IMG/VR virus record: IMGVR_UViG_2579778606_000008
Strand: one strand, 5' to 3'
DNA: 35,013 bases
Source: a virus
Taxonomy: Duplodnaviria > Heunggongvirae > Uroviricota > Caudoviricetes
The position numbers were made by a program, and so were the translations under genes. Shown piece by piece: positions 1,419-18,300 of the stretch (positions within the stretch are counted from its first letter, which is position 1; each line of letters starts with the position of its first letter). Under the pieces are notes generated by a model that ran no database searches, was not told the origin of the DNA, and saw only the letters and a program-made list of their open reading frames with translations.

Positions 1419-3875
1419 TTAAAAATCAGCCTGACTCGGGATCAGTTTTTGCCAGATAACTGAAACGTATTTTGCCTGGTAACGGGCGTCATCAAGTGCA
1501 TTATGGCGCTCACCTTCGAATGGAATAGCCGTTCTGGCATCGAAGTCTATGGCTTTCCCCAGCTCAACGATTGTGCGTACATCGCGATCGTTGTAGTAAC
1601 GCCACGGGCAGGGGATCCCCTGCCGTTCGTATGAACGGCGCAAAATCGTGTTGTCGAAGTTGGCTCCATTTCCCCAGACCTGAACAAAAAATTCACCGGA
1701 GTTTTCGTCGATAAATTCCCGCAATTGTAACAGTGCATCATCTAACGGGATTTCATCGGTCATAATGGCAGATTGCGCTTCGCGTGATTGCTTAAGCCAC
1801 CATTTAATGGTGTCCCGATCAATGACTCCGCCAGCAGTTTCCAGATCGATAGTCTTACTAAATTCCGGTCCCATATCTCCGGTTTGCGGATCGAAAAATA
1901 TTGCACCTATTGAGATAATCGGGGCATCTGGATTTTTTCCCATGGTTTCAAGGTCGATCATTAGATGGTCACACGTCCCGCTGGTGGATGTGCCTTTATG
2001 ATGACCGTTCACCTTAACTGAGTGATCTGTCGCCTCGCCAGTTTCACTATCGCTATCGTGATGCTGATTGCCGCCAGGGTTCTCCTTGTGTGGATGTTCA
2101 GTGCCTTCCATTTCCTCCGGATCATTTTCCTGAACTTCAACCTGATTCTCTTCATTGAATGTTTCCTGGTATGTTGCGTCGCCCATCACCGCGCCACAAT
2201 CAGGGCAGTTGCCGCCGCCGGTCTGACCGCAGGCGGTGCAGATCTTTTCCGGTTCCTGTTGCACTACTGGTTCAGGTTGTTTCGTTTCTGGCTCGTTTTG
2301 TAACGCATTTGGGCTGTTTTGTTCCGCTTTCTGGCCGTTCTGTTCCGTTTCTTGCTGGTTCTGGTTCACAGAATCGCGGGTTTCCATCCCCTTGACCCAT
2401 TTCGGATCATTCGGGTCGCTAATCCCTGCAACAAATTCTCCGCGAGAGGCCGCAAGCAACTTATCGGCGTCAGGCTGGCTGATATTGGCTGCCTGCATAA
2501 TTTTGTTTACTTCGTCAGCGGTAACTTTTACCTGATTAACCGGATCTATCTGTGCCTGAGTATCCAGCGATTGCGTGTCCTGGCGATGTTCAGTTGTATT
2601 CGGCTCCATTGCTTCAGTCGTTGCCTGTTCATCTGCCATTGCGTCAGACGGTTGTGATTTTTCCTCATTATTTTTTTCTTCTTCTGTTTCGCGTTCAGCA
2701 GCCAGTTCGCGGTTAACTTCTTCCAGGATATCTTTTTCCGGTGTATGTCGTGCAGCAGCGAGAGTTTCCTCGGTAGGGTTCTCGTGATCAGTTTCCGTCA
2801 AATAGGCGTTGATATACCCCTGAAGGCGTCCCGGGTAGTGATAAAATTCAGGGTGTGCGCTTCGGATAAGTGCAAAAATAGCGGCGCGGGAATAATCCAG
2901 GATACCCGGGATTGCGCGAAGTGCTGCGGACCATTCTTTGAACGGACTTTCTTTCTTCCGGACGACTTCTTTTGCGCGACGATAAACGCTGCCCGGAATT
3001 TCATAAATATTAAAATCCATCGGAAGTGTGGCCGCTGCAATCTCCACATCCAGCGTATCGAAGGTGTGTACTAAATTCGGATTGCGATCGGTTTTGTTCC
3101 CTCCACCGGCATTAGCACCGGAAGCCGTGCGGGTGATGCGTGAAACACGATTTCCTTTCATCCACTCTTTTGTCAGCAGACCGCGATCGGTGTAGTCAGC
3201 GCCCAGGTATGCTTCGAAAAAAGCAGTCATCAGTCCCAGGTCTGAATTACCAGGATTAGGGAAAACTTTGTCCGTGTCACGAACCAGTTTGTGGAGATCG
3301 CGAATTTCCAGCGGTTCGAGTTGCGCTGCTTTATTTGAGATGGCCAGCGCGGTAACGGCGGGAAGTTTTTCATCCTGTGCGTTATGTAATGTGCGCAGTT
3401 CGTCCCGCGAAACGTGTGTGATCGGTTTTTCGCTGCCGTGCTGTGCCAGCCATCGAACAGGCAGAATCTGACCTGAAACCGGCAGGAGCATGTTCTCCTC
3501 AATCTCAGCCATGTCTTCGCCGTTGACGTTGGTATTGTCAGTGCTGGCTGGTTTATCCTGAACAGAGGGCGAGGGCGCGATAAGTACCATTGTGATACCA
3601 TCTTCACCGCCCTTTTCGTATCGGTTGCAGAATTCGGTATCAAACACGCCTTCCGGAGGAAGGTCATTCACAACGGGTAAATGGACGCGAACAGGTTTTT
3701 TAAAATCCTCTTTGTCAAATCCGGCATCGTCCATTGCGACAACACCGCGTGATATTGCAACCGATAATTTTTTTGCTGTGCGCCAGTAAAAACCGCCTTT
3801 AATTCCAAGACGTTTTCTGATTTTGTCATTTTTGGCTTCGTAATATAGTGCAATTTCTTCTTTATCAGTGCTCAT
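1419..3875 (-). CDS. Multidomain exonuclease: unknown N-terminal domain, acidic Q/E/N-rich low-complexity linker with a Cys4 zinc ribbon, C-terminal DEDDh (DnaQ-like) 3'-5' exonuclease domain
   Basis: 818-aa ORF; C-terminus has the motifs DLETMG, NGANFD and H-x4-D (HNALDDARY); CTACGQ...CPDCG zinc ribbon; start ATG at 3875 preceded by GAGGT. Confidence 0.7.
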   Translation of the reverse strand: MSTDKEEIALYYEAKNDKIRKRLGIKGGFYWRTAKKLSVAISRGVVAMDDAGFDKEDFKKPVRVHLPVVNDLPPEGVFDTEFCNRYEKGGEDGITMVLIAPSPSVQDKPASTDNTNVNGEDMAEIEENMLLPVSGQILPVRWLAQHGSEKPITHVSRDELRTLHNAQDEKLPAVTALAISNKAAQLEPLEIRDLHKLVRDTDKVFPNPGNSDLGLMTAFFEAYLGADYTDRGLLTKEWMKGNRVSRITRTASGANAGGGNKTDRNPNLVHTFDTLDVEIAAATLPMDFNIYEIPGSVYRRAKEVVRKKESPFKEWSAALRAIPGILDYSRAAIFALIRSAHPEFYHYPGRLQGYINAYLTETDHENPTEETLAAARHTPEKDILEEVNRELAAERETEEEKNNEEKSQPSDAMADEQATTEAMEPNTTEHRQDTQSLDTQAQIDPVNQVKVTADEVNKIMQAANISQPDADKLLAASRGEFVAGISDPNDPKWVKGMETRDSVNQNQQETEQNGQKAEQNSPNALQNEPETKQPEPVVQQEPEKICTACGQTGGGNCPDCGAVMGDATYQETFNEENQVEVQENDPEEMEGTEHPHKENPGGNQHHDSDSETGEATDHSVKVNGHHKGTSTSGTCDHLMIDLETMGKNPDAPIISIGAIFFDPQTGDMGPEFSKTIDLETAGGVIDRDTIKWWLKQSREAQSAIMTDEIPLDDALLQLREFIDENSGEFFVQVWGNGANFDNTILRRSYERQGIPCPWRYYNDRDVRTIVELGKAIDFDARTAIPFEGERHNALDDARYQAKYVSVIWQKLIPSQADF

Positions 3876-3952: not shown

Positions 3953-4162
3953 TTACGGTGCTGTTTTAAGCCCCGCCGGGATTTCGTTATTGTCCATGTG
4001 AATAACTTTATCGACCGGATAACAGTTGCCGGGAATTTTCTGTTCCGCTGCGGCAGCCATGCATTCTTTCATTGAGTTGTACATGCCGGTGATTGCATCA
4101 AGCGACTCACCAGTATTGAGATGTACAGTCAGAATGAGTACGAATAATGTGTTCATCGCCAC
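3953..4162 (-). CDS. ydfD: YdfD-like small membrane/lysis protein
   Basis: 69-aa ORF with hydrophobic N-terminus (NTLFVLILTVHL); position and sequence match what I recall of Qin YdfD, downstream of dicB. Confidence 0.6.
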   Translation of the reverse strand: MAMNTLFVLILTVHLNTGESLDAITGMYNSMKECMAAAAEQKIPGNCYPVDKVIHMDNNEIPAGLKTAP

Positions 4163-4341
4163 TCTCCGAAAATACCGAGTTTAAGAAGGGCAATTCTGGA
4201 GAGTATGGAATTGTCATTCAGCAGGTAGGGTTCATATTTTCTCATATTGATTGCATCCTCGGTGAAATCCCTGTTACTGAGCAGAACACCAATATTAAAG
4301 CACCCGTCAGACGTATTAACGTTTGGTAGTGACGTTTCCAT
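4153..4341 (-). CDS. dicB: DicB-like cell division inhibitor
   Basis: 62-aa ORF; motifs LPNVNTSDGCF.IGV and FTEDAIN.RK match my recollection of E. coli DicB; lies in the dicA-controlled minus-strand operon. Confidence 0.7.
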   Translation of the reverse strand: METSLPNVNTSDGCFNIGVLLSNRDFTEDAINMRKYEPYLLNDNSILSRIALLKLGIFGEWR

Positions 4342-4351
4342 TATCGCGTCC

Positions 4352-4909
4352 TCAACAATGAATTTTTAGCAATTGCTCCACAGTCATATTTTTAATTGCG
4401 CTCCGGTTTACAAGAGTCCATCCTTGTTTCTCCAGATAAAACCGGAAGGTATCCAGGGTGCAGACCATTGCGCCGTCAGGAACGGTTTCAGTGAATTTGA
4501 TATTGCCGTGTTCGTCGAGACGGATAACCAGGGTGCGTCCGTCCCCGTGAATCATTTTGTCGGGAGACGGGGCGTTATTCTGGCGCAGTTCTTCCTCCAT
4601 GCGATCGAACTCAGCGATGTAGGCTTCTTTGAAAGTTGCGGCTTTTTTACCTGTGAACCCCATCACCAGGAAAACGAAGCCGTTTTTGGTGATTTGGTAC
4701 ATGGGGCGTTTTTCGCCTTTGGCGTCGGTGTAGGTAACGGGCGTAAAATTGCGCTCGTTAAAATCTTCAGAGCATTCTAGCGTTTCAATTTTGCGCAGAA
4801 CGTCCTTGTGCATTTTGCGGAAGAACTCTGCAACCGCAACAGACGTAGTGACAGCGCGACCATTTTCGATGGTTACGTCAGGGTGAGAAAGGGTAGGGAT
4901 AGTAGCCAT
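4352..4909 (-). CDS. Rha-family phage regulatory protein
   Basis: 186 aa from internal ATG at 4909; N-terminal TTSVAVAEFFRKMHKDVLRKI...MYQITKNGFVFLVMGFTGKKAATFKEAYIAEF fits the Rha domain; the longer 284-aa track ORF (4352..5206) would run through a terminator. Confidence 0.65.
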   Translation of the reverse strand: MATIPTLSHPDVTIENGRAVTTSVAVAEFFRKMHKDVLRKIETLECSEDFNERNFTPVTYTDAKGEKRPMYQITKNGFVFLVMGFTGKKAATFKEAYIAEFDRMEEELRQNNAPSPDKMIHGDGRTLVIRLDEHGNIKFTETVPDGAMVCTLDTFRFYLEKQGWTLVNRSAIKNMTVEQLLKIHC

Positions 4910-5075
4910 AATGGCAGCCTCTTGGTTGAGTATTAATAACTCACCACCAAGGTTTTCCACGACCATAAGGGTGGTGAGGCGTACAGGGGTGGAAATACCG
5001 GTCAACCAAGAATCCGGCCAGCCTTGCAGCTGCCCTGCACGCCCCACCATAATCTGAATGTGGCTGTGCTTGACG

Positions 5076-5101
5076 CATAAAAAAACCGCCTGAGCGCGGT
5101 T
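5076..5101 (-). terminator. Putative intrinsic terminator (minus strand) between dicF and rha
   Basis: Minus-strand hairpin AACCGC-GCTCAG-GCGGTT followed by a T-run (plus-strand A-run at about 5077-5085). Confidence 0.4.
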
Positions 5102-5389
5102 ATGCGCTTGATTGAATTCCGGGTTTCCACGCCCGGCACCCGTTTTATGAGGTGCAGGTGCACTATAATTCCACCCGTTCTGGTTTTCAATAGCTACATT
5201 CAACATTTTCTCTTACCTTTCATCACCGAAGTGAACTTTGTTGATGCGGTGCCTGGTGCCTCCAGGTGACGTTAACCAGTTAACAATTAACGCCGGATAC
5301 AGAGAATCCACCCATAACACTGTTTTTGGTTTTAACTGTTCCGCGTGCGCTTAGCCGCATTCACCGCATCACAAAATTCACTTTAAAAA

Positions 5390-5442
5390 GGGTGGCAGAG
5401 CAGTCACGGAGTAGAACTGATGCCACCAAAGACTACACATGG
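5390..5442 (-). ncRNA. dicF: DicF-like small RNA (ftsZ-targeting sRNA of Qin-type prophages)
   Basis: Minus-strand sequence UUUGGUGGCAUCAGUUCUACUCCGUGACUGCUCUGCCACCC followed by a U-run closely matches DicF as I recall it, including the terminator hairpin; lies downstream of the ydfABC-like genes as in E. coli K-12; ends are approximate. Confidence 0.65.
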
Positions 5443-5736
5443 GTATTGTGGCGGGGCTGTCACTTAAGCGTATGGTCAACCTGACAACCCGGTGCATTTT
5501 CTGGAGCAATGGAGGAAACCCCAGCCATACTTACCGCCGCGCCATTTCGCGGATTGCCACAACCGGAAGCGCACGATCGAATTAAATTTAACGACGACCT
5601 ATACAGAGAGACTAACTTCGCCGGGCGCTTTCGTGTTATGCCCTGACTTTTCAGGGATATATCCTTTTTAGTAAACTGTCAGTGCCGGATTCTTATCCGT
5701 GTCCGGCGCACGCACTCTACCTCACCTGTGAATAAA

Positions 5737-6481: not shown

Positions 6482-6889
6482 TTATTTATTTGCGCTTCTT
6501 TTGCGAGCTTTGAGTAGTTCTTCAAAAAGTTTGTTGAAATTCTCAACTCGAGCACGCATCTCTGACAACAGAGCCTTTTGCTCTGACTCAGGCAGTGCGT
6601 CGAACAGTTGAAGCAACTCTTTTTGATCTTCTGTCAGATTAACTGGCTGATTATCTGGGATCGGTTCGCCTGGTTGCTTATCTTCATCTCCAAAAAGAAG
6701 CCAAGTCGGCGAGCACTGAAGCGCCTGGCTCAGTGCGAATAATCTCTTCCCCGCTGGCTGTGTTTCATCTCTTTCCCATTGAGAAATTGTTACGTGAGCC
6801 ACTTTGACCAGCTTACCTAATGCGGCCTGAGACAGTTTTAATTTTTTACGCCTGTATAAGAGGCGAGCACCGAAGGTTTCGTTTTTCAT
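6482..6889 (-). CDS. dicA: DicA-like HTH (XRE-family) repressor
   Basis: 135-aa ORF; HTH region and C-terminal LFGDEDKQP...LPESEQ...EMRARV.NFNKLFEELLKA closely resemble recalled E. coli DicA; divergent from a dicC-like gene. Confidence 0.85.
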   Translation of the reverse strand: MKNETFGARLLYRRKKLKLSQAALGKLVKVAHVTISQWERDETQPAGKRLFALSQALQCSPTWLLFGDEDKQPGEPIPDNQPVNLTEDQKELLQLFDALPESEQKALLSEMRARVENFNKLFEELLKARKRSANK

Positions 6890-6965: not shown

Positions 6966-7193
6966 ATGTTGAAAATTGATGCTATAGCGTTTTTTGGCAG
7001 CAAAACAAAGCTTGCCAATGCCGCAGGAGTTAGGCTGGCAAGCGTTGCTGCATGGGGGAAACTGGTTCCTGAAGGTCGCGCGATGCGTCTACAGGAGGCA
7101 TCCGGCGGGGAACTTCAGTACGACCCCAAAGTTTATGACGAATATCGTAAGGCAAAGCGGGCGGGGCGGTTGAACAATGAAAATCACCCCTGA
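6966..7193 (+). CDS. dicC: DicC-like Cro-type regulator
   Basis: 75-aa ORF; ...FGSKTKLA.AAG.RLAS...LVPEGRAMRLQEASGGELQYDPKVYDEY matches recalled DicC; divergent from dicA. Confidence 0.8.
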   Translation: MLKIDAIAFFGSKTKLANAAGVRLASVAAWGKLVPEGRAMRLQEASGGELQYDPKVYDEYRKAKRAGRLNNENHP

Positions 7194-13689: not shown

Positions 13690-13902
13690 CAAAAACGGTT
13701 TGCGGGGAAATCTTAGTTAAGTAGAATAACTGCGGGTGCTTGAGGCTATCTGTCTCAGGCATGAACACCAAAAGGCAGATAGAGAAAAGCCCCAGTTAAC
13801 ATTACGCGTCCTGCAAGACGCTTAACATTAATCTGAGGCCATATCTATGCGACACATAGAGATTAGCCTCTTACGGACCGAAAGGTCAAGGAGAAGCAGG
13901 CT
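13690..13902. promoter_or_regulatory. hok leader region (expected site of the mok-like leader ORF and Sok antisense RNA)
   Basis: 20-codon leader ORF (13847..13906) whose stop overlaps the hok ATG; a Sok RNA was not delineated, so boundaries are not resolved. Confidence 0.35.
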
Positions 13903-14058
13903 ATGAAGCAGCAAAAGGCGATGTTAATCGCCCTGATCGTCATCTGTTTAACCGTCATAGTGACGGCACTGGTAACGAGGAAAGACCTCTGCGAGGTACG
14001 AATCCGAACCGGCCAGACGGAGGTCGCTGTCTTCACAGCTTACGAACCTGAGGAGTAA
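13903..14058 (+). CDS. hokD: Hok/Gef-family type I toxin (HokD/RelF-like), 51 aa
   Basis: Translation MKQQKAMLIALIVICLTVIVTALVTRKDLCEVRIRTGQTEVAVFTAYEPEE matches HokD/RelF as I recall it; below the ORF-track length cutoff; GGAG RBS. Confidence 0.9.
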   Translation: MKQQKAMLIALIVICLTVIVTALVTRKDLCEVRIRTGQTEVAVFTAYEPEE

Positions 14059-15934: not shown

Positions 15935-18300
15935 ACCGAACGCAGAAAACTTACCAAAACATAACCCCCCAAAATCAACAAAAACGAGCGACGACGCGCC
16001 AGCAAAAAGCACCGATCAAAAAACAAGGACCGATATAACCGCACAGCAGCGCATAGTGCACGCCAAAACACAACGAAATTAAGCCTGTCCGGACGGCTGG
16101 CAATAAAAATTATTGCAGAGCCACCGGATAAAAGGCCTCCTAAACTACACAATAGCACGAAAGAACCACACAATGAACAAACGCACGCAAGAAAGCCAAT
16201 GGACGATGAGCAGTTTGATGAAATCAATATTGTACGTGGCCAGCCACAAGCCGGCGGAAAGCAAGACACAAGAAGAACAGAGGTCAGGGACCAGAAATAA
16301 CAAGGAATTACACGAAGTGCGGAAACAACACAGAAGCGCCAAAGCAGAAATCAAGGAAGAAACAAAAAACCAACTAGAACACCAGCACCAAAATAACCGC
16401 GAAGACACAACACCGTACAGACGCAAAAAAAGTAAAGACAGCGATCAGGAAAAAAAAAAAATGATCACGCGGGATAATCCCCCGATCCAGGGTAAACAAT
16501 CACTGGCGAAAGGCTCATCAATTGCGCTACCCACCACGCTGGAACGACCAAAAGCACAGAAGCGGCGACCAGACCTGGAACTGGAAGAACATCAGAAGGC
16601 GTAGGCGGACGGCAGTGATAAACGAAAAACAAACTGCGAGCAGCAAAAAGCAAAAACGCAAGCGCAATGGAGTGAATTTAAAACTCAGTCCGGCTCCAGA
16701 AAAATTGCAGTGAAAACGCTGGAGCGTGTGAAGAAATAGAGATAAAAGGCGGCACAGGATGTCAGAGGAAGACCCAACGGGAAGAAAAACTACAAAACAC
16801 ACGAACGAGCCAGACTGTGTGGAGTTAAGCCTGATAACTGGAGCCATAATTATGCGAACTACTGGCGTGAGATGTGCGATATTTTTAAGCGCCTCGATAG
16901 AGAATCCTTGATGTGCAAAATGAAAATAAGAGCGCAACAAAAACCAAACACAACACGACGAGATATTGCAAAAGTCAATTAAATCGCACAGCCAAAGTAC
17001 AAAACAAACATTTAAACCAAATCAAACAGGAAGCAAAACAAACAAAAAAACACAGAAAAACGCTCCATGTGAGATCCGAAAAGCCCGGAAATAAAAGAAA
17101 CAAGATAGCGCATGAAAAGAAAACACTGGCAGCTGAACGGCCACGCAGACAAGAGATACGGCAAAATCACACGAACAAGAAAAGGGAAAAAGACATGCTA
17201 AAACAGAAGGATATGACAGAAGCCGCCAGAGGGACATCGAAACAACCAACCGATACCGACACAACAACAGTCACGCAGATGGCACAGAATACTTACACAA
17301 CACCCGAAAGCTGACAGGAAAAAAAAACCCAGCAAGACAGAGAACGTCGCGCACAATACAAACGTGCCTGAAAAAAACAACAGCAGTCCGAAAGGCTTGA
17401 AGATGGCTGGAAAACGAAAAGAAACAGGGCGTCATAGGTGCAACTTTCCCGTTGCTGAAAAAGAAAACGCCAGAACAGAAGACAGACAAAAGAGAGCACG
17501 AAAAAAGTTCAAATACCACACAATACACACGGATGACTGCTGTCAGGCTCGCCAAGAAAGTACGAAAAGAAACTGGCATGGTGAATCCCCCTGTGCGGAG
17601 GGGCAATCAGCGAGTAGGTATATGGGAAAATAAAAGAACCAGGTGAGGAAAATGAATTAACCGGGAGGCACCCGGCACCATGCAATGGCACATAGCGCCA
17701 AGCAAAAACCCCTCTCCGCAGGGGCCGGCGATACAGAATGAGAAAGATCGAACCAAACTCCAAAGGCAAAAGGTTACCTTAGCCAAAAAGAACAGAGCTA
17801 AAGAGCCCAAAGCAGAAAAAAGCATCAATACAAAACAAAATCCATAGCTCGACGGCATACCAGAACGAAGAAGACTAAAGCCCAAAAAGAGATACGGAAA
17901 GAGAAGACAATATAAAAGCTCACAAATAAAAAGTAAGGAGGGACAATAAAACAAACAAGAGCCAGCATAAATAGAAAAACAGGAAGCAAGAAAACAACCC
18001 AAACAAACCAGATGAAGAACAGGATTGCACCACATATGACTGAAAAAGATATTCCGCATGATGGCTGGATAAAACAAACAACCAAAATCCACGACACCCA
18101 CAAAAAGCACCAAAACCTCAAACCCGATCAGCCGAAAAGTATAAAGGACACAGAAAACCCCAAACCAGACAGCAGAATCAGGAAACCGATCAGCTTTAAG
18201 CCAGATATAAAAACACCGTGGGATATATCAAAACACCTAGCGGACCCACAAATACAAGCGTCAAAAAAAAAATCAAAAGGAAGGCACAATGGGGAACGAA
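15935..18300. other. About 2.4 kb compositionally extreme block: plus strand A/C-rich and strongly T-depleted, with no convincing gene
   Basis: By eye only a few T per 60 nt across most lines; the resulting overlapping ORFs in many frames encode K/Q/E/N/T-rich (plus) or F/L/C/S-rich (minus) low-complexity peptides; two short islands of normal composition (about 16810-16920 and 17580-17730). Confidence 0.8.

Follow-up and report, generated by a model that had tools for sequence, protein, structure and literature searches.

How is the division inhibitor DicB expressed in a prophage whose dicB gene does not lie directly behind dicF? DicF and DicB are textbook prophage-encoded division inhibitors and, to our knowledge, nearly all functional work on them concerns the allele and the operon layout of Escherichia coli K-12. 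The question is raised by a stretch of 35,013 nt from the Caudoviricetes record IMGVR_UViG_2579778606_000008 of IMG/VR, referred to here as the window, whose minus strand carries dicF and dicB separated by DNA that is absent from the K-12 prophage Qin. An initial annotation of this region had recognised a DicF-like sequence with apparently compensatory stem changes and had placed a second terminator and a gene of the Rha family between dicF and dicB, an arrangement expected to uncouple DicB and YdfD from DicF. The analysis presented here points elsewhere: we consider it likely that the window combines a minority DicF allele, called type B below, with an antirepressor cassette that is self-contained and riboregulated, in the manner of P1 c4, P4 CI and Gifsy-1 IsrK.

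The cassette between dicF and dicB

Homology to K-12 spans positions 5730 to 5232 of the window and restarts at 4366, leaving about 865 bp of extra DNA which ends about 25 nt before the dicB ATG (the features discussed here are collected in Table 1). The spacer that precedes the extra DNA differs from K-12 by only three substitutions across its aligned part. A scan of the whole window with Rfam models identifies DicF, IsrK and a C4 antisense RNA as consecutive elements on the minus strand, all of them full-length and all above their gathering scores.

IsrK scores 69.2 bits against RF01394 (threshold 50) over model positions 1–77. It includes two 5′ hairpins followed by an intrinsic terminator at 5101..5079, which the terminator scan reports as a hairpin and U-run at 5101..5077 with a U7 tail. 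The -10 element of a promoter, identified by consensus match only, ends 6 nt upstream of IsrK model position 1. The C4 RNA scores 78 bits against RF01695 (threshold 45; model positions 1–87) and is separated from rha by a leader of 58 nt. The Rha protein matches Pfam Phage_pRha (108.7 bits), TIGR02681 (109.7 bits) and the PHROG regulator and anti-repressor families; its domain starts right after the ATG at 4909, which has its own conserved Shine-Dalgarno sequence, and shows an excess of substitutions at third codon positions. The initial annotation was thus right about the hairpin, the Phage_pRha reading frame and the extra DNA, but its second terminator is the 3′ end of IsrK, and it had missed both the C4 RNA and the promoter which the cassette carries itself.

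Element b′ of C4 is complementary to b1 in IsrK and to b2 in the rha leader, as is element a′ to a1 and a2. Site b2 overlaps the Shine-Dalgarno sequence of rha (GAGG, 4921..4918), 8 nt before the ATG at 4909. Comparison of related cassettes bears directly on these pairings. The alignment of 12 distinct cassettes is nearly invariant; hypervariable patches occur only at the predicted interaction sites, and the patches covary. Covariation was counted in an alignment of 11 sequences, including those of phages mEp460 and Salmonella 118970_sal3. For a1:a′ and b′:b2 together, 97.9% of the cells pair and both-sided changes occur at 11 of the 17 pairs, a count reached by none of 500 shuffles, while slid controls are 40–49% paired. 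Taken alone, a1:a′ pairs in 100% of the cells, and b1:b′ pairs in 91.9% (against 27–50% when slid), both with compensatory changes. A 3-nt indel shifts the register of a′:a2 in two variants and makes fixed columns impossible, so that this pairing was tested by run lengths: in a matrix of cognate and non-cognate combinations the cognate value is 7 over a background of 5–6, which is permissive and supportive only. At least 12 b specificities and at least 5 a specificities are represented, including those of Stx1, Stx2c, cdtI, PhiR49_2, mEp460 and Salmonella phages. The first duplex predictions for C4 with the leader and with IsrK were over-extended and were replaced by explicit complementarity and covariation.

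The cassette occupies the same position between dicF and dicB in 17 loci, which include the 12 distinct sequences (81–100% identity). It occurs with DicF of type A in 5 of 114 loci, among the matches listed, and with DicF of type B in 12 of 36; at 23 loci a type B DicF has dicB directly downstream. A strict linkage between DicF allele and cassette was rejected, all four combinations being found: cassette and allele are independent. The promoter is kept in 11 of the 12 cassettes, and other promoter-like hexamers lie at the same place in the IMG/VR contig L099 and in the phage cassettes described below. A 100% identical copy of the stretch 4100..5600 is present in many complete E. coli genomes, and 313 of 5426 such genomes contain at least 80% of it.

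The junctions are compatible with change in either direction. The cassette is bordered by a pair of imperfect direct repeats, CAAAGTTCACTTCGGTGA and AAAAATTCATTGTTGAGGA, located in 5200..5260 and 4335..4395 (minus strand), and the final 15 nt of the rha frame are still present upstream of dicB in K-12. With these two features, loss of the cassette from an ancestor that carried it could account for the K-12 layout as easily as an insertion could for that of the window. The spacer itself carries traces of the dicB frame: RefSeq annotates a "DicB fragment" pseudogene ("DicB, missing C-terminus") inside it at 5320..5237 on the minus strand, and in K-12 (L002:4505-4609) a GTG in the spacer is in frame with dicB and adds 35 codons. 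Since that GTG is in frame, some DicB models are N-terminally extended. The cassette splits this frame, which again shows a formerly contiguous spacer to have been divided.

Cassettes of the same type are also found elsewhere. In contig L099 (L099:4337-5650) one follows a K-12-type DicF at a distance of about 1.1 kb, and both the sequence upstream of it and the promoter-like site (TTGACG-17-TATATT) are different. It follows that the cassette moves as one unit, starting at IsrK position 1. Seven further phage cassettes (L176-L182) come from 118970_sal3, mEp460, Stx2a_1447, Stx2c, PhiR49_2, Stx1_699 and cdtI. In the annotated phages 118970_sal3, mEp460, Stx2a_1447, PhiR49_2, Stx1_699 and cdtI the cassette belongs to the early-right operon, where a cII- or roi-like gene lies on one side of it and the replication genes on the other, and it is not beside dicB; Stx2c_JNE072859 has no annotation at the cassette locus. 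The position of the cassette in phage genomes is flexible.

Table 1. Features of the dicF–dicB region and neighbouring genes in the window
Feature	Position	Strand	Basis
IsrK/C4/Rha cassette, about 865 bp absent from K-12 Qin	5231..4367	-	blastn, alignments
Sigma-70-like promoter, TTGAAA-17 nt-TATAGT	5190..5162	-	10/12 consensus matches
IsrK-family small RNA (sRNA), 77 nt	5155..5079	-	Rfam RF01394
IsrK target-mimic a1, GUGGAAA, hairpin-2 loop	5130..5124	-	
IsrK target-mimic b1, UCAAUCAAG	5115..5107	-	
C4-type antisense RNA (STnc1160 / P4 CI equivalent)	5054..4967	-	Rfam RF01695
C4 recognition element b′, UCUUGGUUGA, hairpin-2 loop	5011..5002	-	
C4 recognition element a′, UUUCCAC, junction	4995..4989	-	
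rha leader with downstream C4 targets	4960..4918	-	
Leader target a2, GUGGAAA	4960..4954	-	
Leader target b2, UCAACCAAGA	4929..4920	-	
Rha-family regulator, putative antirepressor (AnrP-like), 185 aa	4909..4352	-	Pfam, TIGR02681, PHROG
284-aa open frame, RefSeq "Rha family" ("Ash"-like stretch fused to Rha)	5206..4352	-	RefSeq, ORF list
DicF sRNA, minority type B allele	5441..5390	-	Rfam RF00039; K-12 alignment; allele tally
dicF–dicB spacer, nearly identical to K-12	5389..5232	-	Alignment
dicB, 62 aa	4341..4153	-	Pfam DicB, 111.7 bits
ydfD-like gene (DUF1482), overlaps dicB end	4162..3953	-	Pfam, 69.6 bits
Exonuclease gene	3875..1419	-	Pfam search
DicA-like HTH repressor, operon head	6889..6482	-	Pfam search; K-12 layout
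Cro/DicC-like gene, divergent from DicA-like gene	6966..7193	+	Pfam search

The DicF allele

The DicF-like sequence reported on the minus strand is a full-length match to RF00039, with 61.1 bits over model positions 1–52 (gathering score 48, E 3.3e-11); dicF of K-12 scores 76.7 bits. Its U-run extends to about 5385, and the accompanying DicA-like, DUF1391, DicB and DUF1482 genes follow the K-12 order. Alignment with dicF of MG1655 bears out the K-12 stem as the initial annotation had given it (GGCGG...CCGCC). Over seven positions on each side, the stem reads GGUGGCA...UGCCACC in the window and GGCGGUA...UGCCGCC in K-12. Pair 3 is C-G in K-12 and U-A in the window, both sides being substituted, so that pairing is preserved as had been proposed; pair 6 changes from U.G to C-G by substitution of one side, and a single U is replaced by C in the loop. 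Predicted folding energies are -15.8 kcal/mol for the window, -15.9 for K-12 and -15.4 for a U.G intermediate, while mismatched variants, including those in which either side of pair 3 is reverted, fall to about -12 kcal/mol. The terminator, formed by the 3′ stem-loop and U-run, has the same architecture as that of K-12 and a comparable stability.

The stem change had also been taken to argue for selection on RNA structure, and this was put too strongly. Copies of DicF were gathered with degenerate patterns that left both sides of pairs 3 and 6 free; the allele statistics come mainly from IMG/VR, and the figures for type A are those of the matches listed. A scan of genome contigs (one genome per species) for the DicF core gave only 7 loci. 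Pair 3 is C-G in at least 123 copies, U-A in 39, U.G in 3 and mismatched in at least 9. The mismatched copies (C.A or C.U) all have a K-12-type backbone, and the U.G copies share the backbone of the U-A copies, as expected of an intermediate between C-G and U-A. The U-A pair is always accompanied by a variant 5′ end. Because all 39 U-A copies share these other changes, they belong to a single lineage, type B, and go back to what is essentially one event. Among 17 distinct sequences, both-sided changes occur at 1 of 11 pairs, a number reached in 367 of 500 shuffles. With one lineage and such a count, the change at pair 3, although it keeps stability and has a U.G intermediate on its backbone, fits selection for the stem (an intrinsic terminator as well) but is by itself weak evidence for it. 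A core of 37 nt, including the unpaired loop and the seed, is invariant in the 39 type B copies. The DicF core is present in 4030 of 5426 complete E. coli genomes; about 208 of the 5426, or about 4%, have the type B allele in full (at least 95% identity).

Type B also differs from K-12 at its 5′ end, where the first 12 nt are wholly replaced (CAUGUGUAGUC in the window, UUUCUGGUGACG in K-12) and where the 14 nt directly upstream, which held the AU-rich context of the K-12 5′ end, are deleted. K-12 DicF uses its 3′ region to pair with ftsZ, pykA and manX and its 5′ region to pair with xylR (PMC5069750, PMC5861419). A disrupted seed had been named as an outcome that would speak against the initial reading of this RNA, and the two seeds have fared differently. 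At the Shine-Dalgarno sequence of ftsZ, the ACUCCG:CGGAG pairing is kept, with C31-G35 paired with -8..-12 in the predicted duplex; the 5′ (xylR) seed is replaced. For the 3′ region, the duplex with ftsZ is predicted at -21.3 kcal/mol, against -27.9 kcal/mol for K-12, and 2% of shuffles match the value of the window. The weaker duplex is due to the G-to-A change in the 3′ arm, which removes one distal predicted pair. With xylR, K-12 DicF forms 13 contiguous pairs (-20.3); the best pairing of window DicF with xylR reaches -13.5, which 25% of shuffles equal, and complementarity of the K-12 type is absent. We infer that window DicF still represses ftsZ, somewhat more weakly, and that it has lost xylR; it may have a different set of 5′ targets. 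A prediction with the whole DicF molecule and the ftsZ leader (-33, with shuffles at -29 +/- 4) was uninformative and was replaced by these separate tests of the 3′ and 5′ regions.

Known relatives and how the cassette may work

Several described systems resemble the cassette. Citron and Schuster, and Heinrich, Riedel and Schuster, are said to have worked out the immI region of P1 and P7 as an operon of c4 antisense RNA, icd and ant, in which elements a′ and b′ act against the target pairs a1b1 and a2b2. In the antirepressor operon, the downstream target reportedly overlies the ribosome-binding site of the first gene, specificities are said to differ among phages, and the P1 c4 RNA is reportedly released by RNase P. 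The resemblance covers the C4 RNA, its two recognition elements and the upstream and downstream target pairs on one transcript; the operons even have a division inhibitor in common, icd in P1 and dicB in the window. They differ in the regulated gene, ant or a member of the Rha family, and in the upstream target copy, which in the window is a separate, terminated sRNA, unlike that of P1.

IsrK and C4 have been equated with seqA and CI of P4, and systems of this kind have been noted in lambdoid prophages of Salmonella (Barquist et al. 2013, PMC3632133). P4 seqA-CI-seqC has the same succession of target, antisense RNA and target, and a Phage_ASH frame overlies the region. In P4, however, the outcome is premature termination of transcription of the replication genes, whereas b2 in the window overlaps a Shine-Dalgarno sequence, and this location suggests translational control of the putative antirepressor.

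The closest resemblance is to the isrK-orf45(STnc1160)-anrP region of Gifsy-1, in which Hershko-Shalev et al. (2016) dissected the IsrK promoter, its leaky terminator and AnrP, and in which IsrK pairs with the orf45/STnc1160 region (PMC4825925). Both loci have a promoter, a 77-nt IsrK with its terminator (leaky in Gifsy-1), a structured RNA and an antirepressor-like gene; in both, the central part of IsrK shows complementarity to the downstream RNA, and the AUG at about transcript position 107 is kept. They differ in location, downstream of antQ in Gifsy-1 and in the early-left operon upstream of dicB in the window, and in the gene that follows the antirepressor, isrJ after anrP in Gifsy-1 and dicB after rha here. 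In addition, the orf45 stop overlaps the anrP start (AUGA), whereas the equivalent frame of the window is fused to rha.

From these likenesses a probable mode of action can be outlined. The near-consensus promoter would fire the 77-nt IsrK, which would end at its intrinsic terminator, and, if Gifsy-1 is a guide, read-through transcripts would continue through the C4-type RNA into rha. C4, or the folded leader, would occlude the rha ribosome-binding site. Free IsrK, a mimic of the target sites, would titrate or refold C4 or the leader and so turn on synthesis of Rha, which might then work as an antirepressor or regulator. If dicB and ydfD are transcribed together with rha, this would give them a second route of expression, independent of DicA and gated by RNA.

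Several points weigh against this account. Co-transcription of dicB and ydfD with rha is probable because dicB starts 10 nt after the rha stop, its Shine-Dalgarno sequence overlapping the end of rha, and because the terminator scan found no terminator-like site in these 10 nt. The role of Rha as an antirepressor is putative, judged from the names of its PHROG families and its likeness to AnrP (PMC4825925). The AUG equivalent to that of orf45 (5050..5048) is in frame with rha with no intervening stop, and the AUGA coupling of Gifsy-1 is absent, so that the coupling step must differ from that of Gifsy-1. More broadly, the rha frame runs without a stop through the IsrK promoter, IsrK, its terminator and all of C4 in every cassette examined, which a model based on RNA only does not explain. 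On the side of DicF, the K-12 RNase E context 5′ of the RNA is deleted in type B, and the conclusions on ftsZ and xylR rest on simple duplex predictions.

A more far-reaching version, which we hold to be rather unlikely, would take up the stop-free frame. DicB, with YdfD, would have been captured behind the IsrK/C4 switch and made together with an antirepressor from a promoter independent of DicA, much like a re-invented P1 c4-icd-ant operon with many orthogonal specificities. In addition, real translation of the "Ash" stretch from the upstream early operon would melt and so override the switch, the same stretch being both coding and non-coding.

The uncoupling of DicB and YdfD from DicF put forward by the initial annotation amounts to a plain rha "moron" and an extra terminator that insulates both genes from DicF transcription. 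The DNA is truly extra relative to K-12, and a terminator-like hairpin with a U7 tail (5101..5079) does precede a Rha-family reading frame. That hairpin, however, forms the 3′ terminus of a full-length match to IsrK, which has a near-consensus promoter of its own; a C4 RNA lies between the hairpin and rha, with interaction sites that covary; and in Gifsy-1 the homologous terminator is leaky by design (PMC4825925). With no terminator found between rha and dicB, the cassette would supply transcription into dicB as well as block it. Uncoupling is thus unsupported, simple insulation is improbable, and an RNA-gated second input to dicB is more likely.

It is slightly less probable still that RefSeq is right, that the 284-aa "Ash-Rha" fusion is a real product, and that the isrK and C4 signals are embedded in, or secondary to, coding sequence whose translation is part of the control or overrides it. 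The frame itself is striking. In 12 of 12 dicB-linked cassettes the rha frame has no stop over about 300 nt upstream, where the other frames have 4–12, and it is equally free of stops in the 7 further phage cassettes, down to about 69% identity, in which it is fused to 57–363 nt more of upstream open reading frame. The translated stretch matches Pfam Phage_ASH with 52.6 bits, and the ATG at 5206 is preceded by AAGAGA, which resembles a Shine-Dalgarno sequence. Nevertheless, the pattern of substitution is not that of the Rha domain: variable columns of the "Ash" stretch number 26/25/30 by codon position, with no third-position excess, and pairwise substitutions 8/10/11, against 15/13/40 in the Rha domain. 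Variation is concentrated instead in the patches which covary as RNA pairs, a promoter and an intrinsic terminator lie inside the frame, and the Rha domain begins at an ATG with a Shine-Dalgarno sequence of its own. Gifsy-1, moreover, has stable IsrK and STnc1160 RNAs and makes AnrP from its own AUG (PMC4825925). The "Ash" frame may be either a translated read-through with a regulatory role or a conserved RNA that Pfam and RefSeq have modelled as protein.

Two observations on reading frames belong here. Long fused frames are annotated elsewhere as one long "Rha/antirepressor" ORF (L177:2141-3292, L182:541-1689 and L181:673-1695). A 45-aa ORF at 5078..4941 on the minus strand was considered as a counterpart of Gifsy-1 orf45 and rejected: its frame is not that of transcript position 107, and 7 of 12 variants have only a truncated version of 2 or 28 aa. 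This ORF is unlikely to be a gene, the match in length being a coincidence.

Least probable of all is that this DicF copy is a decaying relic kept only as the terminator of upstream genes, its U-A pair a neutral hitch-hiker: the single covarying pair is statistically weak, the 5′ seed is gone, the 3′-arm change weakens predicted ftsZ pairing and the stem is an intrinsic terminator anyway, but the Rfam score clears its threshold by a wide margin, the seed for the ftsZ Shine-Dalgarno sequence has been kept, and the 37-nt core is invariant in 39 type B copies even in the unpaired loop and the seed, for which a mere terminator would have no use.

The prophage and the meaning of its arrangement

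The window is apparently a complete lambdoid, Qin-like E. coli prophage, with an integrase at one end and ORFs of head and tail size at the other. Its early-left operon reads dicA-like, DUF1391, a 128-aa ORF, dicF, cassette, dicB, ydfD-like and exonuclease. With the K-12 Qin dicBF operon (ydfABC-dicF-dicB-ydfD) it shares gene order, an immunity region of the DicA/DicC type, homologues of DicB and YdfD, and a DicF with the same core, terminator-stem architecture and anti-ftsZ seed; the differences are the 5′ 12 nt of DicF, the 14-nt upstream deletion, pairs 3 and 6 and, on the side of the window, the 865-bp cassette. Qin is cryptic and defective, whereas the prophage of the window looks complete from the integrase through the tail genes. 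Further along, a full-length Rfam match to the sok antitoxin RNA (13734..13905, plus strand, 106.7 bits) would imply a hok/sok-type toxin-antitoxin locus, comparable to that of Qin (hokD). A match to the STnc100 sRNA (17547..17730, plus strand, 82.5 bits) is probably in the Q or late-regulatory region. No tRNA or tmRNA genes were found in the window.

All the components belong to described families, namely C4, Rha, DicB, IsrK (except for the orf45 overlap and its genomic surroundings) and DicF (except for its 5′ seed). As far as the literature shows, an IsrK/C4/Rha cassette placed directly before dicB in a Qin-like operon, a minority DicF allele whose 5′ seed has been replaced and such a breadth of matched specificities are apparently undescribed. 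Current understanding is not overturned by these findings, which extend known systems to a new context. The 284-aa "Rha family" ORF of RefSeq and the Phage_ASH family of Pfam represent either a likely mis-annotation or a puzzle of dual coding. The DicF found in about 4% of complete E. coli genomes has a different 5′ seed and probably a different regulon, xylR having been lost. In roughly 6% of the genomes, dicB lies behind an antirepressor cassette controlled by IsrK and C4, which would change the timing of DicB production. The at least 12 natural, orthogonal RNA–RNA specificities of these cassettes could serve studies of heteroimmunity or provide parts for synthetic regulation.

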